A DNA stretch of 29,701 bases from NCBI GenBank assembly GCA_041304645.1, contig JBFYMY010000140.1, positions 1 through 29,701 of the forward strand. The letters run 5' to 3'. The notes beneath the pieces are model-generated. The model did not search any database. It saw nothing but the letters and a program-made list of their open reading frames with translations, and was not told where the DNA came from. The position numbers and the translations under genes were made by a program. The stretch is from Thermoplasmatales archaeon (lineage in GTDB: Archaea; Thermoplasmatota; Penumbrarchaeia; Penumbrarchaeales; Penumbrarchaeaceae). Shown in pieces: positions 1 to 25,400 of this stretch; within the stretch, counting starts at the first letter, position 1; every line of letters starts with the position of its first letter.

Positions 1-1
1 T

Positions 2-571
2 TATGGTGGCGAAGAGATAATCTTAGAGGGATCTATTATCGAGTTTAAGTTCGACAAGGCAGGAACATACGAGGGCGAACTTACTGTTCATGATGCGTAC
101 GTTAATTCAGGAAAGGATATAATTGTGATCACGGTCATTGACACCGGTATAGTAAAGGGAACTGTCAATGACCTGAAAGGGAACCCGGTCGAAGGGGCTA
201 ATGTGAAGATAACAATATCGAACGGGCAGATATATTCAACAACAACAAAAGCCAACGGCTCGTTCTCGCTTGTGGTGTTCCACGGCAACTTCAACTGGAC
301 CATATCGAAGGAAGGTTACAAGAGCATATCCGGGAGTTCCTACGTCAAGCCCTTGGAGGTTGTGGAGCTTGACCTTACGGATCATCCGATTATAAAAGAG
401 GATGAAAAAGAGGATAATCAATACATAATTCTTATCATCGTTCTTGCGGTCATAGTGGTTCTAATACTCGGGACCGTCCTCTTCATCCTCTTTCGGAAAA
501 AAGGACTATCCCTCGAGCCTGTACCGGAGAAAGGATTGGATATGGATACGGAGTTGGAGAGAGATGAATAA
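2..571 (+). CDS. 5'-partial membrane-anchored surface protein (end of PKD domain, carboxypeptidase-regulatory-like Ig domain, C-terminal TM helix)
   Basis: The frame is open from base 2 (YGGEEIILEGSIIEFKFDKAGTYEGELTVHDAY is a PKD-like end). It continues with GTVNDLKGNPVEGANVKI...TTTKANGSF...ISKEGY (carboxypeptidase-regulatory-like pattern) and a hydrophobic helix followed by RKK. Stop TAA is at 569-571. Confidence 0.8.
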   Translation, partial: YGGEEIILEGSIIEFKFDKAGTYEGELTVHDAYVNSGKDIIVITVIDTGIVKGTVNDLKGNPVEGANVKITISNGQIYSTTTKANGSFSLVVFHGNFNWTISKEGYKSISGSSYVKPLEVVELDLTDHPIIKEDEKEDNQYIILIIVLAVIVVLILGTVLFILFRKKGLSLEPVPEKGLDMDTELERDE

Positions 572-3500
572 AGAGGCTATGATTGTAGTGTTCACCATCC
601 AGATCATCATACTTTCAATATTCCCAATAACATGGTCAATAGAAGCAGAATGTAAAGATGGTTCTTTCGGGGGGGGAAACGGAACTCTTGACAATCCTTA
701 TGTTATCGAAGATGTTTGGGACCTGCAAGCAATGAATGACGACCTTTCTGCGCATTATATTTTGAAGAACGATATCAACGCTTCAGTGACAAAGACATGG
801 AACTATGGTGGGGGGTTTAGCCCGATAGGACACTATTCAGCAGAATTCAATGGCAGTCTTGATGGTCGGGGATACAATATTACAGGACTTGTGATCAACT
901 GGCCTAATGTGTTGAATATCGGATTGATAGGATATTCTGGAACTGAGAGCAAGATAAAAAATCTGAATCTGGTCGAAATTACTTTAAATTCAGGGGATGA
1001 CATCGGTGGGCTTATCGGTTATAATAGGGGTAAGGTGATTGATTCTAATGTCTCAGGAAAAGTAACTGGAAAGCCCAGTTATCATGGAAATATCGGTGGG
1101 ATCGTTGGAACTAATGAAGGTTCAATATCCAGATCTAATTACTGCGGAAATGTGACATGGGTCGGAGAAATTGGCTTGACCAAAGGAAAGGTGGGTGGTA
1201 TTGTTGGGAATAATATAGGATTTGTGGACAATTGCACTTTCTATGGAAATGTCTTTGGGGGATGGATCGTTGGAGGAGCTATAGGAATTAACTATGGTTC
1301 AATCTTAAATATTAAGGTAGACGGGAACATTGAAGGCTATGAACAAGTTGGAGGGATAGTCGGTTCAAGTTCTGCTCTAGTATCTCGTTCCTGTTTCTCA
1401 GGAAATATCTCTGGTTGGTCCCATATCGGCGGTATAGGGGGATTCGTTTCTGGAGGCACGGTGACCAACTGCTATGCTTGGGCAAACACCACCGGTTGGA
1501 AATTTGTTGGTGGTCTGTTAGGGAGTAATTCTGGGTCGGTCATAAATTCTCAAGCCGATGGGAGGGTAAATGGACCACAGAGCGTGGGTGGACTCATTGG
1601 ACAAAATAATGAAGGTTCTTTATCCAATTGTAATGCATCGGTCATAACTATCGGAGAAGAAATCGTTGGTGGACTCGCAGGAGAGAATAATGGAGGCACG
1701 ATAGTCAATTGTCGATCCAATGGAATTACGATCGGAACTAGTTCTGAAGAGAGCTATGTCGGTGGTCTTGTTGGATATAACAATGGGTCAATCTTTAATT
1801 CCAGAGCCGATGGAACAGTGGAAGGGATAGATAGTGTTGGTGGCTTTGTTGGTATCAATAAGGAAGGCTCCATCTCCAATTGCACATCATATGTCGTCAC
1901 TATCGGTGAGGACTTCGTCGGCGGTCTAGCAGGGGAGAATCTTCGTGGCACTGTGGTCAATTGTCAATCCCATGGAGATACTATCGGGACAGGTTTTCAA
2001 TTCGGTGTAATTGGAGGTCTTGTGGGACGCAACACCGGTCCGATCTACGATTCGATTGCCACGGGAAAGGTGACTGGAGTTGTGAACTGGACCTGGTCTG
2101 TTGGAGGTCTTGTGGGCGCCAATAGCGAGTTAGGCACAATAACATCCTCATTTGCAGCAGGGGATGTCCTAGGAAGTGGAGGGGTCGGAGGCCTAGTGGG
2201 ATCGAACAACGGCATGGTTTCCAACTCATCTTCATTTGGAAATGTCAACGGGACGAGTATGGTGGGGGGGCTCGTCGGTAATAACAATGAAGGACAGGGT
2301 GGTTCAATTAATAGTTCATTTTCCCTGGGAAATGTGAGTGGTCATGCCTGGGTAGGCGGCCTTGTGGGGCATAAAGGCTATGGATTTTCGATATCAAACT
2401 CCCATTATAACGTTGAAAAGGTTCTGATAAATGGGGCACATCATGTCACTTTCGGTGGACTGTTCGACCCTCAATACAGGGATTGGATCGAGAACGAGAT
2501 GAACTTGGAAATAACTGACTATGGGTCCACTCTTAGATTGGCTGATGATCATTATGAAATTAGTGGTGTTCAGGGATTTATGGACCTTCTCGGTTTCGCG
2601 GATATTTACGAGTACAAATATCGTTTGGTCATGGATCTGGACTTCTCGCAATACTCGAATATATACATCCCGTACTTAGCTTCACAAGAGTTCGATGGCA
2701 ATGGAAAAACGATATTCAACCTTTGTATAGACCAATCTTTCTCCTCGGGAGTAGGTCTATTTGGCACCATTATCCATGGGTCGATCAATAACCTGTATCT
2801 TGAAAACGTACAAAATTCAGGATACTGGTGGGTCGGTGGGCTTATTGGACAGAACTATTATGGTAATATCATAGCCTCATCCATAGGATCAGGGAATGTG
2901 AGTGGCATCAACGATGTGGGTGGCCTGATAGGAAATAATTATTTTGGTTCGTTATCCTCCTCGTTTTCAAAAGCATGTGTCAACGGAATTGAGAACATAG
3001 GTGGGCTTGTCGGCTTTAATTGGGGTTCCATCTCAAAATCCTATTCTACCGGAAGGACCGAAGGGGACAGTAAAACCGGGGGTCTTATCGGGACAAATTT
3101 TGGTGGTTCAGTCTTTGACTCTTATTCGACGGGTTTAATCATCGGAACCGGTCAAAAGGGCGGACTAATCGGTAACAGCACTAAAGTAACAGTTTCGAAC
3201 TGCTTCTGGGATGTTCAAACCAGCGGATTAATGACCAGCGGAGGAGGGGTCGGAAAGACCACGAAGGAAATGAAGACCAAGAGCATTTATACAGATGCAG
3301 GATGGGACTTCGGGACCGTATGGACCATAATTGAAAACGGGACATACCCATTCCTGAGATGGCAGGACCGTCTGCCTCCAGTCGCGGACCCGGGTCTCAA
3401 CATTACCGTGGATGAAGGTACAATAGTAACCTTGAATGGAGAAAAAAGCTTAGATGATATGGGGATAATTAATTACACTTGGACATTCACAGATGGTGAC

Positions 3501-5204
3501 AAGGTTATGCTTCATGGTCTTAGCACATTGTATCGATTCAACAACCCTGGCTTATTCATTGTCAACCTGACCGTTGAAGATTCTATAGGCAATTTGGACA
3601 CGGATTCCATGACCGTCAAGGTCAATGATTCGGTCCCGCCCGTTGCAAAGTTGTCATTCAAGAACTCTGACGATTTCTATAGGATTAAGGCCAAGAAGTT
3701 CATTGTCAGGGTCAACGAGAACATCACGCTTTCTGCTGAGGGTTCGTTCGACCCTGTAGGGGAGATCGTCGAATACCATTGGGAAATCCCCTCCCAGATA
3801 ACCCTAATCAGCGGTTCGTTGTCAGGGGATAAGGAAGCCTCAGAGAGGATCATATTTCGATTTGATGGGAATTCCAACTACTATCATAACATAACCCTCT
3901 GGGTTAGGGACTCGTCCGGACTGGTCTCCCCCAAGGATTGGGTATCCCTTATGCCTGATTCCGCCCCCCCTTACCTTGATTCATACACCATCTATGATAA
4001 AAGATCAAAGACCTTTTTAGTGGCCCCATACATGATAGACGAGGACGTCGAGCTCGAGTTCAACGCTTCAAGGGCGAGCGATAATGGAGAGGTCATTGAT
4101 CACATCTGGTCCTTCAATGACGGCAGCGGACCGTTCAATGGGATGATAGTGGACCATTACTTCTTTGACCCTGGCAGCTACAATATCTCTCTCCTTCTCG
4201 TTGATGCAGTTGGTAACAGAATGAAATTCGAGAACAGGACCATTCTCGTCAGGGATACGACCAAACCGATACCTGTGATGGTCCTATCGGACCTGGAGAT
4301 CGATATGGGTTCGGAAGTGGTCTTGGACGGTTCCCGATCCTACGATCCAAGGACAACGGGTGATCTTTATGATGCGATATCGAGCTATACTTGGTATTTG
4401 TACAGCGTAGGTGAGAACTATACAAAACAGACGGTCATAGGTCATGGTGGTGTCATAGAGCATACCTTCTTACTACCGGGGTATTGGGTCCTCAACCTTA
4501 CCATCATCGATGAGAACGGTCTGACCGCTTGGACTGAGAAGACCCTGCTCATAGGTGGGCCCGACCTGCAAGTAGATGCTGTGATCTTCGTTGATCCCGC
4601 GATGGACAAGATCAAGGAAGGTGACCGAGCCAAAATATCCATTATCATAAAGAACACCGGTACAACCGACATCCAGAGGGATATCGAATGGGATCTCAAA
4701 GTCACCCTTGACGGAAAGACCATACAAATATACACCATCGATAGAGAGATAAGGGCGGGAGGATCCATTCATATCAATTTCTCATACACCTTCGAAAGCA
4801 GAGGTTCGAAGGAGTTGATGGTGTACCTGGACCCGACCAATGTCGTTCCGGAAATGGTCGAAAATAATAATGATTATGAAATTGACTTTAAAGTCAATAT
4901 TCTGAATGATGGTGGTTTTCCCATTTTCTGCATATCTCAACTAGTTCTTACTATCCTCTTGATCGGTCTATCCCTATCTTTGTTCCTCTATTTGAGGAAG
5001 CGAATGGAACATGGGACCTCCTCAGGTGGTCTGCAGGAGGGAACGGACCAGGCCTCCAAAAATGATGATGAGGTGCTCGGACCTAATGATATTCTAATGG
5101 GATCGGACGATAGGATGGTTAGAGACGATAGGGAAGGTGAGATTGGTCCAGGAATTAATGGGCCCACTTACGAAATGGATGATGACATCATTCCGCAAGA
5201 GTGA
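564..5204 (+). CDS. Large cell-surface protein: signal peptide, two GLUG-motif beta-helix modules, several PKD domains, CARDB, C-terminal TM anchor
   Basis: 1546-aa ORF with a hydrophobic N-terminus, a GGGNGT-DNPY cap and many VGGLVG/IGGLIG repeats. It has the closing motif CFWDVQTSG...GKTTKEMK...GWDF...W...YPFL, PKD signatures (PVADPG...TLNGEKSLDD; YTWTF; HYFFDPGSYNISL), a CARDB signature (PDLQV...VYLDPTNVVPEMVENNN) and a TM helix before RKR. It overlaps the upstream stop by 8 bp. Confidence 0.9.
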   Translation: MNKEAMIVVFTIQIIILSIFPITWSIEAECKDGSFGGGNGTLDNPYVIEDVWDLQAMNDDLSAHYILKNDINASVTKTWNYGGGFSPIGHYSAEFNGSLDGRGYNITGLVINWPNVLNIGLIGYSGTESKIKNLNLVEITLNSGDDIGGLIGYNRGKVIDSNVSGKVTGKPSYHGNIGGIVGTNEGSISRSNYCGNVTWVGEIGLTKGKVGGIVGNNIGFVDNCTFYGNVFGGWIVGGAIGINYGSILNIKVDGNIEGYEQVGGIVGSSSALVSRSCFSGNISGWSHIGGIGGFVSGGTVTNCYAWANTTGWKFVGGLLGSNSGSVINSQADGRVNGPQSVGGLIGQNNEGSLSNCNASVITIGEEIVGGLAGENNGGTIVNCRSNGITIGTSSEESYVGGLVGYNNGSIFNSRADGTVEGIDSVGGFVGINKEGSISNCTSYVVTIGEDFVGGLAGENLRGTVVNCQSHGDTIGTGFQFGVIGGLVGRNTGPIYDSIATGKVTGVVNWTWSVGGLVGANSELGTITSSFAAGDVLGSGGVGGLVGSNNGMVSNSSSFGNVNGTSMVGGLVGNNNEGQGGSINSSFSLGNVSGHAWVGGLVGHKGYGFSISNSHYNVEKVLINGAHHVTFGGLFDPQYRDWIENEMNLEITDYGSTLRLADDHYEISGVQGFMDLLGFADIYEYKYRLVMDLDFSQYSNIYIPYLASQEFDGNGKTIFNLCIDQSFSSGVGLFGTIIHGSINNLYLENVQNSGYWWVGGLIGQNYYGNIIASSIGSGNVSGINDVGGLIGNNYFGSLSSSFSKACVNGIENIGGLVGFNWGSISKSYSTGRTEGDSKTGGLIGTNFGGSVFDSYSTGLIIGTGQKGGLIGNSTKVTVSNCFWDVQTSGLMTSGGGVGKTTKEMKTKSIYTDAGWDFGTVWTIIENGTYPFLRWQDRLPPVADPGLNITVDEGTIVTLNGEKSLDDMGIINYTWTFTDGDKVMLHGLSTLYRFNNPGLFIVNLTVEDSIGNLDTDSMTVKVNDSVPPVAKLSFKNSDDFYRIKAKKFIVRVNENITLSAEGSFDPVGEIVEYHWEIPSQITLISGSLSGDKEASERIIFRFDGNSNYYHNITLWVRDSSGLVSPKDWVSLMPDSAPPYLDSYTIYDKRSKTFLVAPYMIDEDVELEFNASRASDNGEVIDHIWSFNDGSGPFNGMIVDHYFFDPGSYNISLLLVDAVGNRMKFENRTILVRDTTKPIPVMVLSDLEIDMGSEVVLDGSRSYDPRTTGDLYDAISSYTWYLYSVGENYTKQTVIGHGGVIEHTFLLPGYWVLNLTIIDENGLTAWTEKTLLIGGPDLQVDAVIFVDPAMDKIKEGDRAKISIIIKNTGTTDIQRDIEWDLKVTLDGKTIQIYTIDREIRAGGSIHINFSYTFESRGSKELMVYLDPTNVVPEMVENNNDYEIDFKVNILNDGGFPIFCISQLVLTILLIGLSLSLFLYLRKRMEHGTSSGGLQEGTDQASKNDDEVLGPNDILMGSDDRMVRDDREGEIGPGINGPTYEMDDDIIPQE

Positions 5205-7113: not shown

Positions 7114-7208
7114 CTCATTCTATACGGGCCTTCTGATTCTCGATATTTAATCCTTTGCCGTGATGCTCCGAATGGCGGCTAGGACCTGGTTTGGGATCGC
7201 CTGATAGC

Positions 7209-7898
7209 ATGAAATATCAGGAACTGCATGGACCTTCAATGCTCGACGATAGGAGGCTTTTGTACCTTGACGGCAAGCTCTTCACCGAGGACCTGGAAGG
7301 GGGCCGTTCCGTCCACGGGGAGCAGCTCATGGTCCGTGACGGCAGGACCTGCAGGGAATGGGTCCCCTGGAGGTCCAAGATGGCGACATACATCAAGAAG
7401 AAAGGGCTCCCCCATTTCGAGGGCAGGTCCCTCCTCTACCTGGGAGCGGCCCAGGGGACCACCGTCTCACACCTTTCCGACCTGATGCCTAATGGGACCA
7501 TCTACGCCGTGGAGGTCTCCCCCACGGCCTTTTCTCCGCTTAGCTCCCTATCAAAGAGGAGGCCCAACATAGTCCCCATACTGGGGGACGCGTTCCACCC
7601 CGAGACCTACAGTATGATTGTCGGGTCGGCTGACGCCATCTATCAGGACGTCGCCCAGAAGGACCAGCTGGGCATGTTCCTCAGGAACTCCGAGATGTTG
7701 TTGAGAACGGGTGGCAGGGGCATGTTCATGCTCAAGGCTCGCTCGGTCGATGTGACGGCAGACCCCCAGAGCGTGGCCGACAGGACGGCCAGAGGGCTGA
7801 AGGAAGGCGGGTTCGAGGTCCTTGAGATCATAGAGCTTGACCCATTCCAGAAGGACCACTTCGCCCTGTATGTGGAGCGTTCACCGGGTAGGGTATAA
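7209..7898 (+). CDS. flpA: Fibrillarin-like rRNA/tRNA 2'-O-methyltransferase
   Basis: REWVPWRSKMA, LYLGAAQGTTVSHLSD, YAVEVSP, NIVPILGDA, IYQDVAQKDQ, KARSVDVT and LDPFQKDH all match archaeal fibrillarin. The ATG at 7209 is preferred over the TTG at 7191. Confidence 0.93.
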   Translation: MKYQELHGPSMLDDRRLLYLDGKLFTEDLEGGRSVHGEQLMVRDGRTCREWVPWRSKMATYIKKKGLPHFEGRSLLYLGAAQGTTVSHLSDLMPNGTIYAVEVSPTAFSPLSSLSKRRPNIVPILGDAFHPETYSMIVGSADAIYQDVAQKDQLGMFLRNSEMLLRTGGRGMFMLKARSVDVTADPQSVADRTARGLKEGGFEVLEIIELDPFQKDHFALYVERSPGRV

Positions 7899-7945
7899 AT
7901 GCTTTTCAAGAAAGATTTATGATAGGAACCATCCTACCCGGGTCC

Positions 7946-9280
7946 ATGGTCAAGGTCATTCCATTCAAAGCTTACCGCTACTCGAACGAAAAGGTCCCGA
8001 ACATGGCCAGGGTCGTTGCCCCCCCTTATGATGTCATAAAGGGGAAGAAGGTGGACGAGATCCAGGGCCTATCTCCCTTCAATATCGCCTGGATAACAAA
8101 GAACAAGCCCCAGGAGGGTGATGGTCCTGACAACAACCAGTACACCAGGGCCGGCGACCTCTGGAGGGCATGGATGGAGCAGGGCGTCCTCAAGAGGGAC
8201 GAGGATGAGCTTTTCTACGTTTACTGCCAGGACTTCGAGGTGGAAGGCAAGATGCTCTCCAGGTTCGGCTTCCTGGGGCTCCTCGGACAGGAGGAGTTCG
8301 CAACGGCCCCTCCCCCCTCTGGCAAGTTCGCAGGCATCCTGCAGCACGAGGAGACCCTTCCGAAGGACATCCAGGACAGGCTGAACCTTACCAGGGCAAC
8401 CGTCGCCCAGTTCGGCCAGATCTTCGTCATCTATCCCGACCAGGAAGGCGAGGTCGATGACATACTACGGAAGTACATGGAAAAGAAGGGCCCCGTGATG
8501 GACCTCATAGACCATGACAACATCAGGCAGAGGCTCTGGGTCGTGGACGCTAAGAAGGATATCAAGGCCATAACCAGAGCGATGAAGGACAAGTACGTGA
8601 TAATCGCAGACGGACATCACAGGTACAAGACCTCCCTTGCGATGGCCAAGGAGCACCCCGAGCTCAAGGCCGCCCAGTACACGATGATGTGCTTCGTGAA
8701 CATGGCGAACCCGGGGCTCGTGATACTGCCGACCCACAGACTGGTCCAGAACCTTGAGTTCTTCTCCAAGCAGGAGCTCATGGGCAGGCTCGCCGAGCAC
8801 TTCGAGGTCCAGGACTTCCCGGACAAGGAGCCGATGTTCGAGGCAATGGAAACCATGTTCAAGCAGGGAATGCATGCCTTCGGCCTGTTCATGAACGACG
8901 GGAAGTTCTACAGCCTGGCATTGAAGGACGTATCGGTAATGGACAAGCTCCTGCCCGAAAGGTCGCCCCATCTGAGACAGCTGGACGTCTCCATTCTCCA
9001 TGTCCTTGTCCTTGACAGGCTCCTGGGCATAGACAAGACCAAGCTCGCCCAGGGGACCATGACGGGCGGAGGCTATGTCGTATATATCAAAGGCATAGGC
9101 GACGCCGTGGACGAGGCCGTGCAGTCCGTCAAGGACGGTGCCCAGGCCTGCTTCTTCATGAACCCGACAAGGATAGGGGAAGTGGGTAGTGTGGCGACGA
9201 ATTTCGAGTGCATGCCCCAGAAGTCCACCTTCTTCCACCCGAAGGTCTGGACCGGGTTTACTATACACAAATTGGATTAA
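7946..9280 (+). CDS. DUF1015 family protein (ParB/Srx-like DGHHR core)
   Basis: Starts MVKVIPFKAYRY...VVAPPYDVI and contains HEETL...IQDRLNL, IIADGHHRY, LVILPTHR and MPQKSTFFHPK..TG, which are DUF1015 hallmarks. Start at ATG 7946. Confidence 0.88.
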   Translation: MVKVIPFKAYRYSNEKVPNMARVVAPPYDVIKGKKVDEIQGLSPFNIAWITKNKPQEGDGPDNNQYTRAGDLWRAWMEQGVLKRDEDELFYVYCQDFEVEGKMLSRFGFLGLLGQEEFATAPPPSGKFAGILQHEETLPKDIQDRLNLTRATVAQFGQIFVIYPDQEGEVDDILRKYMEKKGPVMDLIDHDNIRQRLWVVDAKKDIKAITRAMKDKYVIIADGHHRYKTSLAMAKEHPELKAAQYTMMCFVNMANPGLVILPTHRLVQNLEFFSKQELMGRLAEHFEVQDFPDKEPMFEAMETMFKQGMHAFGLFMNDGKFYSLALKDVSVMDKLLPERSPHLRQLDVSILHVLVLDRLLGIDKTKLAQGTMTGGGYVVYIKGIGDAVDEAVQSVKDGAQACFFMNPTRIGEVGSVATNFECMPQKSTFFHPKVWTGFTIHKLD

Positions 9281-9299
9281 AAAAAAAGGAGATGACACG

Positions 9300-10388
9300 A
9301 TGGCAAAGAGGGTCTATAACTTCAATGCGGGCCCCGCGACCCTTCCGGTCCCAGTACTGGAAAGGGCCAGGGATGAGATGCTTGACTGGGCGGGGACCGG
9401 CATGTCCGTCATGGAGGTCTCCCACCGGGGCAAGGAGTACGACGCGATGCACCATGAGGCGATGAGCCTTGTGAAGGAGCTCATGGGCTGGACCGACGAG
9501 TACAAGGTGCTTTGGCTCCAGGGCGGGGCCTCCATGCAGTTCCTGATGGTCCCCCAGAACCTTGCAGTTCCGGGGAAGCCTATGGAATATGTGAACACGG
9601 GAGCCTGGTCCAAGAAGGCCATCAAGGAGGCGAAGCTCTTCGGCGATGTGAAGGTCGTAGCCTCGTCAGAGGACAAGAACTTCACTTTCGTCCCCAAGGA
9701 CGTTTCGTTCTCAGAGGGTTCGGCCTTCGCTCACATGACGGGGAACAACACGATCTTCGGCTCCGAGTGGCACTACTATCCGAAGGTGCCCTCCGACGTC
9801 CCTCTGGTCGTCGATATGTCCTCGAACCTGATGGACAAGGTCATTGAGGCGAAGAGGTTCGCTCTTCTCTATGCAGGGGTCCAGAAGAACCTCGGGCCTG
9901 CCGGTGTGACGCTTGCCGTCATCAGGCAGGACCTATTGACCAGGGCGCCCGAGAAGGCCCCGACCATGCTCAAGTACAGCACCCACTCAGCCGAGGATTC
10001 GTTGTACAACACGCCGCCGTGCTGGGCCATATACATATGCAAGCTTGTCCTTGATTACATGAAGGAGAAGGGAGGCGTTGCCTACTTCGAGAGGGTCAAC
10101 AGGGAGAAGGCGAAGATCCTCTACGACGCCATAGACTCCTCCGGTGGCTTCTACAAGGGACATATAACCGATAAGGACTCGAGGTCTCTCATGAACGTGA
10201 CCTTCAGGCTACCGACAGAGGACCTGGAGAAGCAGATAGTGGATGAGGCAAAGAAGGCAGGTCTCGTCGGTCTGAAAGGCCACAGGTCCGTCGGCGGGAT
10301 GAGGGCCTCCATATACAACGCCGTTCCCATAGAGGGCGTCAAGAAGCTCGTGGAGCTCATGAAGGACTTCCAGGCGAAGCACCAGTAA
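9300..10388 (+). CDS. serC: Phosphoserine aminotransferase, bacterial-type SerC
   Basis: NFNAGPATLP, SVMEVSHR, LQGGASMQF, TGAWSKKA, NNTIFG, DMSS, YAGVQKNLGPAG (PLP lysine), YNTPP and GHRSVGGMRASIYNA. A GGAGA RBS at 9288-9292 precedes ATG 9300; the ORF-track extension to 9189 is spurious. Confidence 0.96.
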   Translation: MAKRVYNFNAGPATLPVPVLERARDEMLDWAGTGMSVMEVSHRGKEYDAMHHEAMSLVKELMGWTDEYKVLWLQGGASMQFLMVPQNLAVPGKPMEYVNTGAWSKKAIKEAKLFGDVKVVASSEDKNFTFVPKDVSFSEGSAFAHMTGNNTIFGSEWHYYPKVPSDVPLVVDMSSNLMDKVIEAKRFALLYAGVQKNLGPAGVTLAVIRQDLLTRAPEKAPTMLKYSTHSAEDSLYNTPPCWAIYICKLVLDYMKEKGGVAYFERVNREKAKILYDAIDSSGGFYKGHITDKDSRSLMNVTFRLPTEDLEKQIVDEAKKAGLVGLKGHRSVGGMRASIYNAVPIEGVKKLVELMKDFQAKHQ

Positions 10389-10407
10389 AGTGTAAGAACA
10401 GAGTCGT

Positions 10408-10443
10408 TTCGTTAACCGTGGTTAATTAACCATGGTTAACGAA
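10408..10443. repeat. 36-bp near-perfect palindrome made of two 14-bp sub-palindromes
   Basis: TTCGTTAACCGTGGTTAA|TTAACCATGGTTAACGAA has 17 of 18 positions complementary. It contains TTAACCGTGGTTAA (10412-10425) and the perfect palindrome TTAACCATGGTTAA (10426-10439). Confidence 0.9.
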
Positions 10444-10517
10444 TGTATCTGATATTGTAGGGTAGATTGATGCTATCCTATTCTGCATAAGTATGGAGCG
10501 GTTTCTAAATATTGTCC

Positions 10518-12191
10518 TCAGAGGATCCTCTGTTCATGGAACGAGGAGCTGATCACAAGGTTCCTTCCCTGGCATGAGTAATCGATCCAATCCTTGGAAA
10601 CGACCCCATGCTTGAAGCCCTTTAGCCTTAGGGAGTTCTTGCCGTCGTTCTCCCTGAACTCGGCTATGCCGTCCATCAGATACTCGACCGAGTTCGTGAT
10701 CTCTTCCGAATGTACGTTCGAGGCCATATCATAGAGCGTTGTGAAATTGTAGTTCTTAGACCGCGCTATGAGCACCTGGAGGAACTTCATAAGATCGGTC
10801 TGGTCCGTATGATTGATGAGCGGTGACAACGAGCTTATTATGACAACTCCGCCGCCGTAGGTGGATTTCATCTCCTCTATGACCATTATGAGATCGTTCT
10901 GGAACCTCAGGAAATCGGCCTTGTCATGGATATTGAATATCCTGTGGCCCTCCTTGAGCACCATATCGTTATTATGTCTAGAAAATAGGTCGAACATCCT
11001 GACCATGCCGTCGCGGTTGTACTCCTTGAAATCCGGGAGCGCCTCGGTTATTCCCCTCACGACCTCCTTCATGGCCCTGTTGGAGGATACATATATCACG
11101 GGAAGCCCCTTCCTTAAGGACGCCGCAAGGAACATTTCAACGACAAGGTCCTTCCCGCAGAACGTCGGTCCCTTTATCAGCTCCTGGCTCCCTGTCTCTA
11201 TACCGCCCTTTAAAAGCGAATCCAGCCTTTTATTGCCTAGTTCCAGGAACTTGATCCTTGACAGGTCCTCCCTTATGGTGGCATTCGCTCCCTTGCTGAG
11301 CTTCTGGAGGTAGAAGAGGGCCTCTTTATTGCTGGGAGAGGATGATAATGCCCTTGTGTAGAGCTCCCTGGCCAGGGAGATGTTGCCTCCCTTGTATGCT
11401 TCCTTGGCCATATCGAGTATCTTCCTGAGACCCTCCGGCTCCCCTCCCTCGATGACGATCTTCCCCCCGCACAGAGGGCACTTGGTCAACCCCTGGTTCG
11501 ATCTGAGCTTGATCTGGGCGTTGCAGGATGGGCACCTCCTAACGGTCCTGTCCTCCTCCTTCTGGACCAGGTCGAAGGAACGGCTCAAAGGCCTCTCGCC
11601 CCTGACGGAGGTCCTTAGAGTGATTATGTCCGACGGCCTCCCCACCGTCCCCATGTCGGGCGTGGACAACGGTTCCGGAGGTGTCGGGTCATTGATAGGT
11701 TCGGCATAGGGCGGACCTTGAGGTGGTGGGGGTGATGAGGGCCGTTCTTCGATTTTATCGGTTATGTCCCAGTCCAGATCCTCCTCATCATCGTCAGAGG
11801 GGGAGGGAGGTGAACCAACATCTTTACATCCCTTGGGACCGCATTCTATGAGTAGAACGTTGTAATCATCATCGGAAACACCAAGTTTCTTCCGGAGGAC
11901 ATCAAGGAGCCCCTGTTCGTCCTCGGTCACCTTTCCGTCCTTCCAGGCCTGTTCAAGGACGTCCTTCATAAGCTCCAGGGTGTCGGGTATGTCAACGATC
12001 TCAAGGTCGTCCCAGTTGAGCTCGTCGGTCTCCTCATCTTCCTCGGGTCCATGATCGTCTTCCGGCTCGATGTCCAGCTCCTTTCTTGCCCCGACATCTC
12101 CAGTGCCAGGGCTGGGTTCGTGAGAGTCCTCTACCAGTTCCGCTATGACGGTCCTGGTTCCGGTCCCTGCCTTCTTTTGCCCATCTCCCAT
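10518..12191 (-). CDS. Multidomain protein: acidic N-terminus, TerB-like helical hairpin, Pro-rich linker, Zn ribbon, TPR-like helices, degenerate KaiC/RAD55 ATPase domain
   Basis: Contains AWKDGKVTEDEQGLLDVLRKKLG, CPSC...CPLC, AKEAYKGGNISLARELYTRAL, LGNKRLDSLLKGGI...LIKGPTFCGKD and VEYLMDGIAEF...LRLKG. Start set at ATG 12191 (MGDGQ); the track extension to 12299 overlaps XPD. Confidence 0.8.
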   Translation of the reverse strand: MGDGQKKAGTGTRTVIAELVEDSHEPSPGTGDVGARKELDIEPEDDHGPEEDEETDELNWDDLEIVDIPDTLELMKDVLEQAWKDGKVTEDEQGLLDVLRKKLGVSDDDYNVLLIECGPKGCKDVGSPPSPSDDDEEDLDWDITDKIEERPSSPPPPQGPPYAEPINDPTPPEPLSTPDMGTVGRPSDIITLRTSVRGERPLSRSFDLVQKEEDRTVRRCPSCNAQIKLRSNQGLTKCPLCGGKIVIEGGEPEGLRKILDMAKEAYKGGNISLARELYTRALSSSPSNKEALFYLQKLSKGANATIREDLSRIKFLELGNKRLDSLLKGGIETGSQELIKGPTFCGKDLVVEMFLAASLRKGLPVIYVSSNRAMKEVVRGITEALPDFKEYNRDGMVRMFDLFSRHNNDMVLKEGHRIFNIHDKADFLRFQNDLIMVIEEMKSTYGGGVVIISSLSPLINHTDQTDLMKFLQVLIARSKNYNFTTLYDMASNVHSEEITNSVEYLMDGIAEFRENDGKNSLRLKGFKHGVVSKDWIDYSCQGRNLVISSSFHEQRIL

Positions 12192-12264
12192 ATATGTGGA
12201 CCTTCCAGTCCCGGGAATGTCCGAAAACACCCTAGGGACGTCAAATATCCAACATACTATAAGA

Positions 12265-14379
12265 TTAATCTTTCCCTGTAAAGAACCGTATGGGCGCATT
12301 AAGCTCCGGGTCCAGGACAGAGAGCTCCCCCAGTTCCTCCCTGAAATGTACCGCTCTTTTGTCCATTATCACGGAGAACCCCCGTTCCTCCTCCGACCGT
12401 ATCATCCTTCCGACGGCCTGCAGTATCTTCCTGGCCGCCGGGGCGTGGACGGTATATTCCCAGCCCTTTCCGAACCTGATATCGTAGAACGATGACAGAC
12501 TTCTCTGCCTTGCATTGGGCTTGGGGTAGGGTATCCCAACTATCAGAACGAGCTCAAGGGACCTGCCAGGATAGTCCATGCCTTCCGAAAGCCTCCCCCC
12601 CATCACCGAGCAGAGGACCCCCCCTCGGGAGGCCCTGAAATCATCCACCAGCTCCATAACATCGGACTGTGACGAGCCCCGCCTTTCCATGAAGAACGGT
12701 CTCCCTGAAAGAAGGTCCTCCTTGAGGGTCGTGCCATCCTCGAGCTCCTGGACGCCCAGTATGTCCTCCATCAGGTCGAAGGAAGGGAAGAACAGGGCGG
12801 TGTTCCTGCCCCTTACCCCGTCCAGGATCCGGAGGACCCTATCCCTGTACCTGGCCTTCATATCCGGGTCCTTCCTCAGCATCTCGTAGCTGGTGCACAG
12901 GTCCTGGGTGTAGGTCAGCATCCTGTTCCCCGGGGGGAATGGCGGAGGGAGCTTCAGAAGCTCGGTGTCCCCCGGCAGACCCAGCGTGTCCCTGTACTCC
13001 TCCAGGGGGGATAGGGTCCCGGAGAGATGGACGGAGGAGTGGACCTTGACCAGGTCACCAGTCACCTGAGAGGGGTCCATCGCGAAGGCCTCGAGATAGA
13101 GCTCTCCGGGACGCTGACCCTTTACTATGAGGGGGGAATAGGCAGTGAAATCGAGCTCGTTCCAGGCAAGGAAGAACTGTGCCGCCCTGTGGATGTACGA
13201 ACGCGGGAGCCTCCCCTGCGCCCTCCTTGTGTCCTGTATGGAGGTTCCGTACTGGAGCATCTCGGAGAAGCCCCTCTCCAATTGGGAAGAATTGGACCGG
13301 AGCTGCACCATCAGCGTATCCATCAGGGCCGCTGGTGGCACCGTGCCATCCTCGTCTATGAGGAACTCCTCGGCGACGGTCTGAAGTGCCCCTGACAGGG
13401 CATCTATGAGGAGGCTGACGGTGAACGGACCGACATCCTTGTCCCCGAAGGTCCCCGCCTCGGAGGCAGCAAGCCTGAGGGAGGTGAGCGATATGGACAG
13501 GGAGCAAAGCTCCCTAGCGAACTGAGCGACGTTGTGGGCCTCGTCGAAGATCACAATGAGGTCCTCAAGGCCGCACCCCATCCATTCCAACAGCCGCCTC
13601 CTTATGAAGGGCGACAGGAAGAATATGTAAGGTGCCGTGACAAGGACCGAATCCGAGACCATCCTCTTGGTGGTCTCGTAGGGGCATGTCCCCATGGACA
13701 GGCACTTCTGGGCCATCTCCTCGGCAGTCGGGGAACAACCCCTTGCCCAGGACCTGGCCTCGGCCCCCTCGTCGAGGAGGTAGGCGGAATAGAACCTGCA
13801 TTCACTGCCATTTACGGGCTTCCCGGACATCCTAGATAATGTGACGCGCTTCCTATCCCCGCACATCTTCGAGAGCTCCTCGGGTGTGCCCGTGAGGAAC
13901 TCCGGGTCCTCGGAGGCGAGCGGGCACATGTTTCCCCTGCCCTGGATGGCGGAGCAGACCCCCTTCCCGGGCCCGCCCTCCCAGGGCCCCGTCATTGGCC
14001 CTATCTTATGAGCGCTGCCAACGGGGGGTCGCTCGCCCCTTTCCCCGTTGAGCTCCCTGAGTATGTCATCGACGATATCCACCGGCGGACCGGAAGGGGG
14101 CGGTAGCACGCCATCGACCGAGCAGGACCTGATCCGTCTGTACTCCTCCACGACCTGCCTCTGCTGCGAGTTCGTCCTTGTGAGGTATAGGACCCTCTTC
14201 CTGTCCCTGTATGCATGGAAGAGGGCAGGGGCGAGCGAGGAGACGGTCTTCCCCGAACCCGTACCCGCTTCTATGGCTATGTGGCCCTTATGGTCCATCG
14301 ACCGGTCCATACGGTCCACCATTTCGACCTGGATAGCCCTCATCCTGTAGGGGAAGAAAGACAGCAGTTCGGACCGCAT
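12265..14379 (-). CDS. xpd: XPD/Rad3-family 5'-3' DNA helicase with Fe-S cluster
   Basis: Walker A EAGTGSGKT, RTNSQ, DEAHN, SGTLSP, GRLSEGMDY, IVGIPYP and QAVGRMIR. Four Fe-S ligand cysteines are present (GNMC, KMC, ECRFY, TCPYE). Confidence 0.93.
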   Translation of the reverse strand: MRSELLSFFPYRMRAIQVEMVDRMDRSMDHKGHIAIEAGTGSGKTVSSLAPALFHAYRDRKRVLYLTRTNSQQRQVVEEYRRIRSCSVDGVLPPPSGPPVDIVDDILRELNGERGERPPVGSAHKIGPMTGPWEGGPGKGVCSAIQGRGNMCPLASEDPEFLTGTPEELSKMCGDRKRVTLSRMSGKPVNGSECRFYSAYLLDEGAEARSWARGCSPTAEEMAQKCLSMGTCPYETTKRMVSDSVLVTAPYIFFLSPFIRRRLLEWMGCGLEDLIVIFDEAHNVAQFARELCSLSISLTSLRLAASEAGTFGDKDVGPFTVSLLIDALSGALQTVAEEFLIDEDGTVPPAALMDTLMVQLRSNSSQLERGFSEMLQYGTSIQDTRRAQGRLPRSYIHRAAQFFLAWNELDFTAYSPLIVKGQRPGELYLEAFAMDPSQVTGDLVKVHSSVHLSGTLSPLEEYRDTLGLPGDTELLKLPPPFPPGNRMLTYTQDLCTSYEMLRKDPDMKARYRDRVLRILDGVRGRNTALFFPSFDLMEDILGVQELEDGTTLKEDLLSGRPFFMERRGSSQSDVMELVDDFRASRGGVLCSVMGGRLSEGMDYPGRSLELVLIVGIPYPKPNARQRSLSSFYDIRFGKGWEYTVHAPAARKILQAVGRMIRSEEERGFSVIMDKRAVHFREELGELSVLDPELNAPIRFFTGKD

Positions 14380-15218: not shown

Positions 15219-16379
15219 TCACGTCACTATTTCGGCCAATCTATCCTCTTGAACGGCTCTGCGGACCTCCATGGCGAGCCTCCTTCCTGTGGAAACGGTC
15301 CGCCTCCAGATGGAATTCCCATAGGGATGGCCCACCCACATGTGGACGTTGGTCCCCCCGCCGATCCTTGGAGCGACATCGTAGATGAAGAAGTCCATGT
15401 CCTTGTCAACGCAGGTCTGGAGGCAGAAAGGCCCTATGATACCGGGCGGATAGTGCTCCTTTGAGGCCTTGACATAGCTCTCGGCCATCTCGAAGACCTT
15501 CTCGAGCAGCGACTCCCTCAAGGTCGCCGAGTTGTGGCCGCAGACCGTGTACTCGGGTATCATTTGTTGTTGGTTCAAGGTCATCTGCTGGGGGGCGGGC
15601 AGCCTAACATGCCCGTCGAGGGAGGTCTCGAACCTCCAGTCCACGCCCAGGAGCTCCACCGGCGACATCTCCTCTTCCAGCGGCGAGTAGAACAGGTCGA
15701 AATTGAACACGGGGCCTATCACATAACGCTCTATCCTCGCATCCTTTAAGGTCATTTCGTCTATGACACCCTGCTCCACGAGCTTCCTGGACTTGGTCAT
15801 GTACTCCTCGTAGGAAGAGGCCGTGAAGAAGCCCCTCTCCAGCTTCTTCTTCTTGTGGTGGAGCTTCACGATGACGAGCCGGTCTATGTCCCTGGGGTCC
15901 TCGACCCGCTCGGGGAAGGGGAGACCAGCCTTTTCGAGCAGCCAGTAATAGCTCTGCCGCTCCTCTCTCTCTTCCGAGCGGAGCATCCCTCTGCTGCCTA
16001 CCATGGGAACACGGAAATCGTTCTCAATGGATGCGATGTCAACGTACGAGGTGAATGACCTGTTCGGGACCCACAGAAGGGACCTCTGGCGCATCCAATC
16101 CTGCCACCGGGGCTCCATCACATCCTTGTACCTGTCAAGGACGATGGCATCGTCCACCATGCCCCTTTGCAGCTTCCCGTCCAGCCCCCTCCTGGCCTTG
16201 AAGTAATGGGAATAGGTCCTTTCCCGCCCCTTCTGGCAGAAAGCCGTGGTCCTGAACCCCTCTTCCACGGCACCGTCGCAGGCATCGAGCGCAGAATGGG
16301 ATGCTATCATCCCTATGGTGACATCGTCCCTGTCGTATCCCCTGACCATCCTCTGGACCTCTGCGCGATCGAGCATCAT
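15219..16379 (-). CDS. purP: PurP-family formate--AICAR ligase (FAICAR synthetase or close paralog; ATP-grasp)
   Basis: IGMIASHSALD...GAVEEGFRT, VPNRSFTSYV, GSRGMLRSEER, LERGFF, IGPVFNFDLFYSP, YTVCGH..ATLRESLL, IIGPFCLQ, DVAPRIGGGTN and GRRLAMEV. A GGTGA RBS is adjacent to ATG-ATG (16379/16376). Confidence 0.9.
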   Translation of the reverse strand: MMLDRAEVQRMVRGYDRDDVTIGMIASHSALDACDGAVEEGFRTTAFCQKGRERTYSHYFKARRGLDGKLQRGMVDDAIVLDRYKDVMEPRWQDWMRQRSLLWVPNRSFTSYVDIASIENDFRVPMVGSRGMLRSEEREERQSYYWLLEKAGLPFPERVEDPRDIDRLVIVKLHHKKKKLERGFFTASSYEEYMTKSRKLVEQGVIDEMTLKDARIERYVIGPVFNFDLFYSPLEEEMSPVELLGVDWRFETSLDGHVRLPAPQQMTLNQQQMIPEYTVCGHNSATLRESLLEKVFEMAESYVKASKEHYPPGIIGPFCLQTCVDKDMDFFIYDVAPRIGGGTNVHMWVGHPYGNSIWRRTVSTGRRLAMEVRRAVQEDRLAEIVT

Positions 16380-16407
16380 CTCACCGGACCGGCCAAGGGA
16401 GCGGCCC

Positions 16408-16417
16408 GATATATATC
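16408..16417 (-). promoter_or_regulatory. Putative TATA element for purP
   Basis: GATATATATC lies 29-38 nt upstream of the purP start and resembles the element upstream of xpd. Confidence 0.45.
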
Positions 16418-16505
16418 TTCGGAGGTGGCACCTACCCCGTCCGGACGCAGGAAGGGTGTGTGTACAGGAATGTATTAATACGGTTGCTGGCAGATTAAGC
16501 ACATA

Positions 16506-16512
16506 TTATAAA
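16506..16512 (+). promoter_or_regulatory. Putative TATA box for the giant-protein operon
   Basis: TTATAAA sits in the 200-bp divergent gap; a GGAGG RBS at 16569-16573 precedes ATG 16579. Confidence 0.55.
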
Positions 16513-16578
16513 CGTTCCCTCGCTGTTAACGGGTGTTGCAGGGCTTGCCCTTTGAGCGGGGGAAGCACGGAGGCGACG

Positions 16579-19500
16579 ATGCGGTTTGCTACCCTATACC
16601 GGTCCTTTGCGGTGGTCGTTGCCCTGGCGATAGCCGTCTCGGCCATTATGGACCCTATAAGGCCCTCCAACATGTTCAGCAGGGAGCAGGGCGACAATCC
16701 GTCCGGGGCGGTCCCCGGGATCGATACCGACGGTGACGGCCTCAAGGACATCTGGGAGGACCTCAACAGGAACGGGGTGCTCGAGATGGAGGAGAGGTCC
16801 CTCTCCGACCCCTACGACCCCGACAGCGACGGTGACGGTATAGAGGACGGATCGGAGTTCGACCTGCTGGCGGCCAGGGCAGGCAATTTGAGCTCCGCTC
16901 CAAACTGGCTCAGGATGTTCTCCCCATCCTTGGAGTCCATGGCGCTTGAGATAGGGGTCCTGGGCCCCAATGGGGATGTCGATAGGGACGGTTCGGTGAA
17001 CATACTGGACTCGGACAGCGACGGTGACGGGATCATGGACGGGGTGGAGCTCTCCGCCGGGACGGACCCTCTGGACCCTGACAGCGACGGTGATATGGTA
17101 CCCGACGGCAGGGATACGGCCAATGGGTTCGTGAAAGATGCCGATGGCAACGGCCTTGATGACGATCGGGAGGAATATTTCGGCCTGGAAGGCCCCGACG
17201 GCGACCCCGACGGGGATACCATGACGAACCTTGTCGAGTTCCAGAGGGGTACTGACCCGACCCATCAGGACCTTTTCGGTGGTCATGTAGGTTCTTTCAG
17301 GCCCACGGACCTGCTTGATATACGCTCGCCGTCCACCCCTATCCTCAGGGTCGAAGGTACAGGGGCAAGGTACCTCAGGGTCGCATCTTTCGACAGGTAC
17401 GTCAACGGGGAATGGCTCCGCACACCTGACCTGCCTCTCACGGCCATAGCCCCTGACGGGTCGGTCAAGGAGGCACGCATCACCCTCCAGGGTAGGTGGC
17501 GCTTCGATATGCCCGTCCATCCCTGGACCATCGAGGCCAAAGCGCTAGCCCCCTACTCTCTCTTTCCGGGTGCCGGTTCGGCCGAGATGGTGATGGAGGA
17601 ACAGATCTCATATTCATGGGTCCCTCTGCAATCTTACACCGTATCATATCTGGAGCCGTCATATGACCCGACGCTCCTTAGCGAGAGCGGTTCGAACGAT
17701 GTCGTTCCATCGAGCTACAGAGAGGTACCCTCAGGCCTCTCTGACGACGTTAAAGAGCTTGCCGAGACCTGGGCGGCAGGACCCTCATCAACATACGATA
17801 AGGCCATGGACCTGACGTTCCGTCTATGGTCCAGATGCATCTATTCCTCAGCCGGAACGACCGGTGACGCTGAGAGCCGCACGGTAAGGGACTTCCTTTT
17901 CATGACCCTAAGGGGCAACGCTCTCGACTTCTCGACCGCCTTCGCCATCATGTTGAGGGTGCAGGGGGTCCCGACGAGATTGGTGGCAGGCTATTCCCTT
18001 GGCATCGATGATGGGGGCTACCGGACCTACCTTGAGGGTCACTTCCACATCTGGGTCGAGGTCTACATCGACGGCATCGGGTGGGTGCCTTTCGAGGTCA
18101 CCCCCCATGCCATCTCAGCAAGGGGTGGGGCCGGGGTCCCGGTGGACGGGGTCGATCCCTACGTGCTCGGTCCCAACTCGGGGGACGGCGGGGGAACGCT
18201 CAGAGGGGGCGGTGACCCAGCGAGCGATCCGGACCAGGACTACGACGGGGACCTGGTCATCAACGGCCGCGAAAGGGAGTTCGGCACCAATCCCTATCTC
18301 CCGGACACGGACGGCGACGGGCTCGATGACGGACTGGAACTCGACCTCTACGGGACAGACCCCCTCTCAAAGGACACGGATTGGGACTGGTTAGGGGACG
18401 GGGAGGAGGTCACGAAGGGCAGGGACGGTTACATAACGGACCCTTTGGTCCCGGACACGGACGGAGGCGGTCTGTGGGACGGTCTGGAATCCCTCTCCAC
18501 CCCGCAGCTTGACCCTCTGGACCCCGAGGATGACAGGCGTGTCACGGACATAGACGGGGACGGGCTCGATCAGGCCCAGGAGGCGTTCTATGGTACCGAT
18601 CCTTTAAGGAACGATACGGACATGGACGGTCTGCAGGACGGGGAAGAGCTCTTCACGTACGGGTCATCCCCCCTCTCAAAGGACACGGACGGGGACGGTC
18701 TCAGCGACAAGGATGAGACCTATCCATCGTCGGGTAAACCCTTTACGAACCCCTCGGCGGCGGATACCGAATTTGATGGTCTCGATGACAGGTTCGAACT
18801 TGACAAGGGTACAGCCCCCGGCAGGTCGGATACGGACCAGGACGGCCTCAAGGACATGTTCGAGCTCGAGCTGGGGACAGACCTGAAAGGTTGGGATACC
18901 GACGGTGACGGTCTGTCCGACGGCAGGGAGGTGAAACTGGGCACAGACCCGTTGAAGGCCGATACCGATGGTGACGGAACGAATGACGGCCCCGAGGTCT
19001 GGAACGGTCTGAACCCCTTGTCGGTCGAAGGTCGGTCCGAAGGCCTTCTCGACGTTGACGGTGACGGCCTGACGGACCGGCTCGAGCTTGAGATAGGGAC
19101 CGACCCTTTCAAGAACGATACCGACGCCGATGGACTAACCGACGCCCTGGAGCATTTCGAGACAGGAACAGACCCGCATTTGAACGACACGGATGGCGAC
19201 GGTCTGTCCGACGGGGCGGAGGTCTCTCTGGGCACATCCCCCAGGCTCAACGATACTGACGGCGACGGGCTCGACGACAGGGTCGAGCTCGTTCTTGGTA
19301 CAGACCCCCTCTCAAGGGATACGGACCGGGATATGTTGTCAGACGGAGCGGAGGTCCTGTCAGGTACGAACCCCTTGACCATGGACACTGACGGGGGGGG
19401 ACTGGGCGATGGTATCGAGGTAGCTGTTCCAAGGGACCCGTTGAAGGGTTCGGATGACCTGCCTTTTCCGCCGGACACGGACGGTGACGGTCTGCCAGAT

Positions 19501-24177: not shown

Positions 24178-25400
24178 GGGTCAGTTGGGCCAGGGCGCTA
24201 TCGCTTTCGGTCATGGTGGCGGTAGCTCTTTTCATCCTCACCGCTCTGGCGGCGCCTCTTATCATAGTGGAGACAAGGTCCACCCTGTCGACCTCCGAGG
24301 AAGGTTGGATGGGAGCCTCGGAGTTCCTGAGCATCGCCAAGACCACCGGGGCGAGCGTCATGGTCCTGACCACCACGCCGACGCTGCTCCTTGAGGACGA
24401 GGACCCCGACAAGGTGCTCTTCATCTCCCTTGGCCCTCAGAGGCGGTATACGCTCACCGAGACCCTTGCCCTCAAGAAGTTCACGGAGAGAGGTGGAAGG
24501 CTCCTTGTGGCGGACGATGAGGGCATGACCTCCGGGGTCGCGGAGGACCACGGGGTAAGCTACGCAAAGGGGCAGCTCTACGACCAGGACTTCGTCGGAG
24601 ATGTCAACCACCTCAAGTTCGATGTCTCGACGAGCTTCTTCGACGGTTTCGTCCTCATGAACCGACCCGCCTCGCTGTTCTTCACCTCGGGCGTCGCCCT
24701 CATTGCATCCTCGAGCTCGGCATGGGTCGATCAGAACGGGAACGGCCTGAACGACAATCTGAGCTCCGGTTCGCCCGAGGCCCAGGGCGTGAGGTACCTC
24801 TGTGTCCTCACGGACCCCGACCTGGCGCAGACGGGCGGGGGTGGGGCGGTGTTCCTCTCGGACCCCTCCATGTTCATGAACGGGATGCTGGGTTCGGAAG
24901 GGAACGGACAGTTCGCCAAGGCCCTCATAGAGTTCCTGCTCCCCGATGGCGGTATGATGGTCATAGACGATTCTGTCCACGACCCGCCGCTCCCCTCATC
25001 CCCCGTAAGGAAAGCGGTCTATGGGGTGGCCATGTTCACGACGGACATCAACATGAAGATAGTCGTCGGGACCCTTGTGACCGTGGCCCTTCTCTCCATA
25101 GCGTACCTCTACAACCCCCTGGAAAGGCCCGAGCACGTCTGCCTCCTGGACAGGAGCGGGGTTGCCGAACTTGCGGAGCCGGAGCTCGCACCCGAGGACT
25201 TAAATGAGGCCAGGAAGGTTTTCCTGGACAGGGTCAGGCTCTTCCACGGCCTCTCGGTCGAGGCATTCTCCAGAGCGAGCTGGGAAGAGCTCGATAGGCT
25301 GATAGGCGACAAGGTGCTCTCGGCGTTCGCCCGGAGCGGGCGTTACGATGGGACCATGGAGGGCATCGTGGAGGAGGTGGGACGATGGCAGAGGAAGTGA
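24174..25400 (+). CDS. DUF4350 domain membrane protein
   Basis: N-terminal TM, STSEEGWMGASEF, FTERGGRLLVADD, VFLSDPSMFMNGML..GNGQFAKALI and a second TM helix. The TTG start overlaps the upstream TGA (TTGA). Confidence 0.78.
   Translation: MRVSWARALSLSVMVAVALFILTALAAPLIIVETRSTLSTSEEGWMGASEFLSIAKTTGASVMVLTTTPTLLLEDEDPDKVLFISLGPQRRYTLTETLALKKFTERGGRLLVADDEGMTSGVAEDHGVSYAKGQLYDQDFVGDVNHLKFDVSTSFFDGFVLMNRPASLFFTSGVALIASSSSAWVDQNGNGLNDNLSSGSPEAQGVRYLCVLTDPDLAQTGGGGAVFLSDPSMFMNGMLGSEGNGQFAKALIEFLLPDGGMMVIDDSVHDPPLPSSPVRKAVYGVAMFTTDINMKIVVGTLVTVALLSIAYLYNPLERPEHVCLLDRSGVAELAEPELAPEDLNEARKVFLDRVRLFHGLSVEAFSRASWEELDRLIGDKVLSAFARSGRYDGTMEGIVEEVGRWQRK

Follow-up and report, generated by a model that had tools for sequence, protein, structure and literature searches.

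The stretch of DNA analysed here, 29,701 nucleotides of contig JBFYMY010000140.1 from a Thermoplasmatales archaeon (the window), carries a two-gene operon in which a protein of the DUF1015 family is encoded directly upstream of serC. Judged by its sequence, the DUF1015 protein is best placed as a distant archaeal member of the SerBK family. On balance, the pair appears to act at the serine/O-phosphoserine node, with DUF1015 serving as a substitute for the phosphatase SerB and holding a kinase capability in reserve. The central idea of such a role is already published for bacteria, and the window pair is its archaeal extension. The arrangement is not a single case; archaeal DUF1015-serC pairs constitute a large clade.

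Architecture, conservation and expression of the gene pair

The closest relatives of the window are metagenome-assembled genomes annotated as Thermoplasmatota; from these and from the genes around the pair, the host is an uncultured archaeon of that phylum. The features of the pair are the following:

7946..9280, + strand: DUF1015 / SerBK-like gene, 444 amino acids (aa); open reading frame (ORF) 7919..9280, start set by homologs
8603-8626, + strand: IADGHHRY motif, residues 220-227, from the translation
9212..9244, + strand: C-terminal signature MPQKSTFFHPK, residues 423-433, with invariant residues of the family
9281-9299, + strand: intergenic spacer of 19 bp, from the sequence
9300..10388, + strand: serC, 3-phosphoserine aminotransferase, 362 aa, of the bacterial/eukaryotic serC_1 type by NCBIfam and Pfam
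10400..10450, no strand assigned: strong hairpin in the gap where serC and the KaiC-like gene converge, from its fold energy

Coordinates and translation agree with what a sequence-only reading of this DNA had reported, namely a DUF1015 gene with an IADGHHRY motif ending 19 bp before serC on the same strand. Translation of DUF1015 starts at the ATG at 7946, giving a protein that begins MVKVIPFKAYRY, and aligned homologs begin MVRVIPFKAYRY. The in-frame ATG at 7919 is improbable as a start, since the homologs begin at the residue matching 7946. The gene ends with a TAA codon at 9278-9280 and is followed on the same strand by the serC ATG at 9300-9302 (protein start MAKRVYNFNAGPATL; ORF as called, 9189..10388, + strand), with a GGAG ribosome-binding site at 9288-9291, 8 nt before that ATG. 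The DUF1015 protein matches Pfam PF06245 over the entire profile (positions 1-325 of 325; E = 8e-82, 275.2 bits against a cutoff of 25.8). SerC interconverts 3-phosphohydroxypyruvate and O-phosphoserine. The window gene is shown by its family matches to encode a standard, bona fide phosphoserine aminotransferase, scoring above the cutoffs of two NCBIfam equivalogs (NF003764, 493 bits, cutoff 253; TIGR01364 serC_1, 476 bits, cutoff 443.6) and also matching Pfam Aminotran_5.

Conservation of the pair was followed in 54 homologous loci from species-representative genomes, all of them Thermoplasmatota or Thorarchaeota/Promethearchaeota (the Thor groups), each taken with 10 kb on either side (756 kb altogether). 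Across the two phyla, the identity of their DUF1015 proteins to that of the window is 59-92%; an exact look-up of the window protein itself in assemblies gave no record. By tblastn, all 51 informative loci have serC on the same strand immediately 3' of DUF1015, with gaps mostly of 10-25 bp; the other three are uninformative for serC because they hold a contig end or a C-terminal fragment only. The adjacency is beyond chance. Pairwise distances among the DUF1015 proteins correlate with those among the SerC proteins (741 pairs, r = 0.86). The neighbour-joining trees of both proteins match in topology, each splitting monophyletic Thermoplasmatota from the Thor groups; the pair has therefore been inherited as one unit. 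Perhaps it was exchanged once, as a unit, between the Thermoplasmatota and the Thor groups. The sequence-only reading had held that an archaeal case would extend the bacterial proposal, an expectation borne out by these 54 loci in two phyla. One locus is discordant (L008, 10001-12428): its serC product is 87% identical to that of the window and the adjacent DUF1015 protein just 67%, which suggests, from these identities, recombination or replacement inside the pair.

The conserved neighbours recovered by clustering around the 54 loci are non-metabolic only, comprising fibrillarin and HerA in Thermoplasmatota and subtilase-like and hypothetical proteins in the Thor groups; genes of cysteine, threonine or cobalamin metabolism do not appear in this clustering as linked to the pair. 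Fibrillarin is encoded directly 5' of DUF1015, in the same orientation and with a median gap of ~49 bp, in 16 sources, namely the window (7154-7915, also given as 7191-7898) and 15 Thermoplasmatota loci. A local three-gene operon that includes serA was considered for the archaea and rejected, the tblastn search of the 756 kb having given zero SerA matches. A tblastn search with E. coli SerB, a query that may miss distant archaeal SerB types, found no SerB homolog in the window or the 54 loci, a result with little bearing on whole genomes. A literature search gave no usable statements on serine pathways in Thorarchaeota or Thermoplasmatota.

The pair is represented in environmental RNA. Contigs 90-99% identical to the window occur in two lake-water metatranscriptome runs, X12 and X20, and cover 7977-10443, that is, DUF1015 and serC at similar depth, contig depth being a rough measure of expression only. 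They leave out fibrillarin and the region past 10456. The contig from run X12 ends at 10443, coinciding with the hairpin at 10400-10450, a near-perfect palindrome (CGTTAACCGTGGTTAAT/TAACCATGGTTAACG) with a folding energy of -25.9 kcal/mol (z = -7.1; none of 200 shuffles reached this stability). The hairpin is likely the transcript end. DUF1015 and serC are likely co-transcribed; this is not proven, because no RNA contig in the metatranscriptome runs bridges the 9233-9296 junction.

Kinship to bacterial DUF1015 proteins and a predicted SerK/SbnI-like fold

The sequence-only reading had mentioned a proposal for bacterial members of the family, and that proposal exists. A DUF1015 protein encoded with serA and serC in C. 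difficile was put forward as the missing phosphoserine phosphatase (Hofmann et al. 2018, PMC6110889), and the GapMind 2026 preprint names the family SerBK (bioRxiv 10.1101/2024.10.14.618325). According to the same preprint, C. botulinum DUF1015 CBO1128, the one member for which such a rescue has been tried, rescues an E. coli serB::kan mutant, SerB is missing in 47 of 50 genomes with a serA-linked DUF1015, and BT1151 is required for B. thetaiotaomicron to grow when serine is the nitrogen source. The top Foldseek match of bacterial DUF1015 is there SbnI, with confident docking of ATP.

Among PLSDB records, tblastn with the window protein recovers 18 bacterial homologs at 24-34% identity. They include members of serC-serA-DUF1015 operons in Bacteroides finegoldii, Enterococcus gilvus and Listeria monocytogenes, in keeping with the earlier statement that bacterial DUF1015 genes often neighbour serA/serC. 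These operon members stand as proxies for CDIF630erm_01132, CBO1128 and BT1151; B. finegoldii belongs to the genus of B. thetaiotaomicron and has the gene order of BT1151. Full-length alignment gives 28-29% identity to the B. finegoldii protein, 26-27% to Enterococcus and 24% to Listeria (tblastn, 89-134 bits), so that by this proxy comparison homology is clear but remote. Over eight sequences from archaea, Bacillota, Bacteroidota, Pseudomonadota and Actinomycetota, 33 columns are invariant, and the window protein keeps all 33. The set includes P6/F7/R11, PYD 27-29, H134/E135, R145, IADGHHR 220-226 and R265; near the C-terminus P424, K426, T428, F430, P432 and K433 are likewise invariant across archaeal and bacterial DUF1015. 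IADGHHR is without exception in 47 archaeal and six divergent bacterial homologs.

The window protein shares with SerBK (CDIF630erm_01132, CBO1128, BT1151) the Pfam family, full-length alignment, a single domain, similar length, the link to serC and all family-invariant residues, including IADGHHR and the C-terminal P-K-T-F-PK. It differs in its archaeal hosts, in belonging to a longer (~440 aa) subfamily with the extra segments APPPSGKFAG (near residue 120) and GGGYVVY (near residue 375), and in gene order, which is DUF1015-serC without serA in archaea and serC-serA-DUF1015 in the bacterial operons. Clustered at 50%, the family as a whole has 8033 representatives, of which 1794 have E <= 1e-30. 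The best 150 of the 8033 are ~400-460 aa long, bar one fragment of 198 aa, and contain no gene fusions. The nearest relatives outside the archaeal clade, at 35-47% identity, include proteins of Aenigmatarchaeota, Planctomycetota and Latescibacteria.

Several bacterial members stand next to genes other than those of serine synthesis. In Candidatus Thiodictyon syntrophicum pTs485 (L059, 3977-5266), DUF1015 adjoins cobD, bluB and the gene for cobyrinate a,c-diamide synthase. CobD is threonine-phosphate decarboxylase, and judging from this neighbourhood the Thiodictyon protein could serve CobD as a PduX-like threonine kinase. On a plasmid of Streptomyces longwoodensis (L061, 1439-5182), genes for a pyridoxal phosphate (PLP) enzyme of the cysteine synthase family, a major facilitator superfamily (MFS) transporter and DUF1015 stand in a row on one strand, an arrangement resembling that of SbnA and SbnI, where a PLP enzyme receives its phosphoserine from the partner. 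The closest bacterial match, in Monoglobus pectinilyticus (L055, 3107-7927; 34-36% identity), is followed by hom, thrB and ask, not by serine genes. These three encode homoserine dehydrogenase, homoserine kinase and aspartate kinase. The cobD, SbnA-like and hom-thrB-ask contexts support kinase chemistry on hydroxy-amino acids as the theme of the DUF1015 family. CobD and the SbnA-like enzyme both act on phospho-amino acids, a point in favour of the reading adopted here.

An AlphaFold2 model of the DUF1015 protein, built with 47 homologs, is confident (mean predicted local distance difference test score, 82.5; predicted template-modelling (TM) score, 0.80). In a Foldseek search against the PDB, its top seven matches are SerK (5x0j/g/b/k/e), P. 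furiosus PF0380 (1vk1) and SbnI (5uje), with E values of 5.5e-5 to 1.9e-3, probabilities of 0.99-1.00 and target-normalised TM scores of 0.48-0.54. Further SbnI entries follow at ranks 9 (6nr6) and 16 (5ujd). The significant matches, 6nr6 included, reach E = 6e-3, and those to SerK and SbnI overall have probabilities of 0.92-1.00; all others, such as elongation factor G and homing endonucleases, stay at or below 0.15. The DUF1015 protein is accordingly predicted from the model to share the ParB/Srx-type core fold of SerK and SbnI. This link is drawn from predicted structure because the PDB sequence searches found nothing relevant; the ParB/Srx kinship to SerK and SbnI that had been claimed from the motif therefore holds at the level of fold, and homology at the level of sequence is undetectable.

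In the model, G223-H-H-R226 sits at a strand-to-helix junction (strand 217-222, helix 224-236). In the ParB-CTPase fold, the phosphates of nucleotides are bound by a GxxR P-motif (PMC12704722). By its position in the model and its fit to this published motif, G223-x-x-R226 is a candidate for the phosphate-binding GxxR P-motif in the ParB/Srx fold. Candidate equivalents of the SerK catalytic Glu30 are D29, E135 and D222, all of them invariant. The best structural matches are SerK (T. kodakarensis TK0378, ADP-dependent, PDB 5X0B) and PF0380 (1VK1): SerK is archaeal, has a ParB/Srx-type core and a GxxR-type motif, and works at the same metabolite node as is proposed for the window protein. In Desulfurococcales, serK adjoins dehydrogenase and aminotransferase genes (PMC5120207). 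SerK is, however, ~240 aa long against 444 aa, and the TM score of ~0.5 holds on the length of SerK only. SbnI (PDB 5UJE, 6NR6), which serves staphyloferrin B synthesis as an ATP-dependent serine kinase, is also a significant fold match, and its role as cited in PMC12704722 is to supply phosphoserine to a PLP enzyme encoded nearby. It differs from the window protein in its siderophore context, its shorter length and its lack of sequence similarity. The C-terminal signature MPQKSTFFHPK has no described counterpart in the ~240-aa SerK and SbnI proteins. SerB, a phosphatase of the haloacid dehalogenase (HAD) type, has an unrelated fold and, on the biosynthetic reading, would share its net step with DUF1015; the DUF1015 protein has no HAD domain match in Pfam at E = 10 or in NCBIfam.

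Proposed function at the serine/O-phosphoserine node

The mechanism proposed for the pair would begin with the binding of a nucleotide by the DUF1015 protein through the G223-H-H-R226 P-motif, followed by phosphoryl transfer at the serine hydroxyl, which would place the DUF1015 step directly before or after that of SerC. In the biosynthetic direction, DUF1015 would supply the SerB step, from phosphoserine to serine, such that SerA (encoded elsewhere), SerC and DUF1015 together would make serine from 3-phosphoglycerate. With serine in abundance, DUF1015 could also work as a serine kinase, channelling serine into 3-phosphoglycerate or supplying phosphoserine. Net dephosphorylation would most likely end in hydrolysis, with release of phosphate and without energy conservation, because the formation of ATP from phosphoserine is strongly unfavourable. 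The fold, the operon context and the bacterial rescue by CBO1128 are consistent with the serine/phosphoserine role anticipated by the sequence-only reading. Its further suggestion, that energy is possibly conserved, conflicts with the equilibrium constant estimated for the reversed kinase reaction (K ~4e-4; bioRxiv 10.1101/2024.10.14.618325).

Several points weigh against DUF1015 as the SerB substitute of these archaea. No DUF1015 protein has a biochemical activity on record (bioRxiv 10.1101/2024.10.14.618325), and identity to the bacterial operon members is just 24-29%. The Foldseek match spans a kinase-sized core of ~240 residues, about half of the 444 aa, with a query-normalised TM score of ~0.3 and a high root-mean-square deviation of 6.6-11.8 Å. 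Neither phmmer nor a 47-sequence profile detects similarity to SerK or SbnI among all PDB sequences, even at E = 10, and at the same threshold the protein has no Pfam match to ParBc. To the unbridged junction between the two genes is added the absence of serA, which tblastn with Bacteroides and Enterococcus SerA failed to find within 10 kb of the pair in the window and the 54 loci; a complete route to serine is accordingly not demonstrated in these genomes.

The chief alternative, held here as a tentative possibility, is a dedicated serine kinase of catabolic or assimilatory function that converts serine and a nucleotide to O-phosphoserine, which SerC would pass on to 3-phosphohydroxypyruvate and SerA to 3-phosphoglycerate, or which would lead to cysteine, as in the SerK route of T. 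kodakarensis. The sole significant fold matches are kinases of free serine, the order DUF1015-then-serC is that of the steps, and the Streptomyces DUF1015 gene adjoins one for a cysteine-synthase-family enzyme as sbnI does sbnA. Precedent is found in T. kodakarensis, where SerK serves serine assimilation and cysteine synthesis (PMC5120207), and in the requirement for BT1151 with serine as nitrogen source. The kinase direction is also favoured thermodynamically: the reversed reaction has the low K given above. An exclusive kinase is nevertheless at odds with the rescue of a serB mutant by CBO1128 and with the anticorrelation of serA-linked DUF1015 and SerB (bioRxiv 10.1101/2024.10.14.618325), and none of the 54 archaeal loci has a cysteine synthase, SepRS/SepCysS or serA gene in linkage with the pair.

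A more far-reaching version of the biosynthetic role, in which the phosphoryl group of phosphoserine is passed to AMP, ADP or another acceptor and not set free as phosphate, would make the pair part of a phosphate- or energy-conserving, SerB-independent pathway in Thermoplasmatota and the Thor groups, with the cassette, as its trees suggest, exchanged between the phyla; this is improbable. A substrate other than serine is quite improbable as well. Threonine, homoserine, 4-hydroxythreonine or a phospho-hydroxy acid might be used, with SerC handling the matching keto acid, and such a role would suit the position of DUF1015 next to cobD in Thiodictyon and, in the closest bacterial match (Monoglobus), next to hom-thrB-ask, as well as the name of NCBIfam NF003764, according to which this type of SerC also accepts phosphohydroxythreonine. 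In the archaea, however, the partner is an equivalog-level serC at every locus, and pdxA/pdxJ, cob or thr genes are linked at none.

Strict reversal of a kinase, whereby phosphoserine and ADP (or AMP) would yield serine and ATP (or ADP) with recovery of the phosphoanhydride, is highly unlikely. It draws on the kinase-like fold, the GxxR motif and the replacement of SerB in vivo by bacterial members (bioRxiv 10.1101/2024.10.14.618325), but runs against the estimated K and against the cellular ATP/ADP ratio, which pushes further towards phosphoserine (both from the same preprint). By established biochemistry the SerA step is itself unfavourable, such that the pathway needs an exergonic last step. 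Least credible is a ParB-like nucleic-acid-binding protein or nuclease that simply neighbours serC: 1vk1 was first described as a ParB-like nuclease (as cited in PMC5120207) and the fibrillarin gene lies 5' on the same strand in the window and 15 loci, but the adjacency to serC is kept across two archaeal phyla, the two proteins co-vary, DUF1015 of bacteria occurs in serine operons and can rescue a serB mutant (bioRxiv 10.1101/2024.10.14.618325), and Pfam scans detect no helix-turn-helix (HTH) or DNA-binding domain in the DUF1015 protein.

Surroundings of the pair and wider significance

Genes near the pair in the window encode fibrillarin, a HerA-like ATPase, a KaiC-like ATPase, an XPD helicase and PurP. 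The KaiC-like protein (10518-12299, - strand; 593 aa) has its ATPase domain at the C-terminus, and its N-terminal half is long, acidic, proline-rich and of low complexity, with a zinc-ribbon-like CxxC...CxxC segment. At the start of the window, region 1-5204 encodes a GLUG/PKD/CARDB surface protein of 1546 aa; the GC content of the first 4 kb is 43-46%, as against 58-63% elsewhere, and the region is possibly acquired DNA. Further along, region 16246-26638 holds an ORF of 2643 aa that combines a transglutaminase core with 11 bacterial TSP3 repeats, and after it genes for DUF4350 and DUF58 proteins.

Gaps at serB recur in metabolic reconstructions. If DUF1015 fills this gap, serine auxotrophy would be wrongly assigned to many uncultured archaea, the Asgard Thorarchaeota among them. 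The two-gene unit of the archaeal clade is clean, expressed and highly conserved, and so suited to settling whether SerBK acts as kinase, phosphatase or both and which nucleotide it uses. The gain is thus an extension of the bacterial proposal and a new system in which to test it, rather than a new concept.

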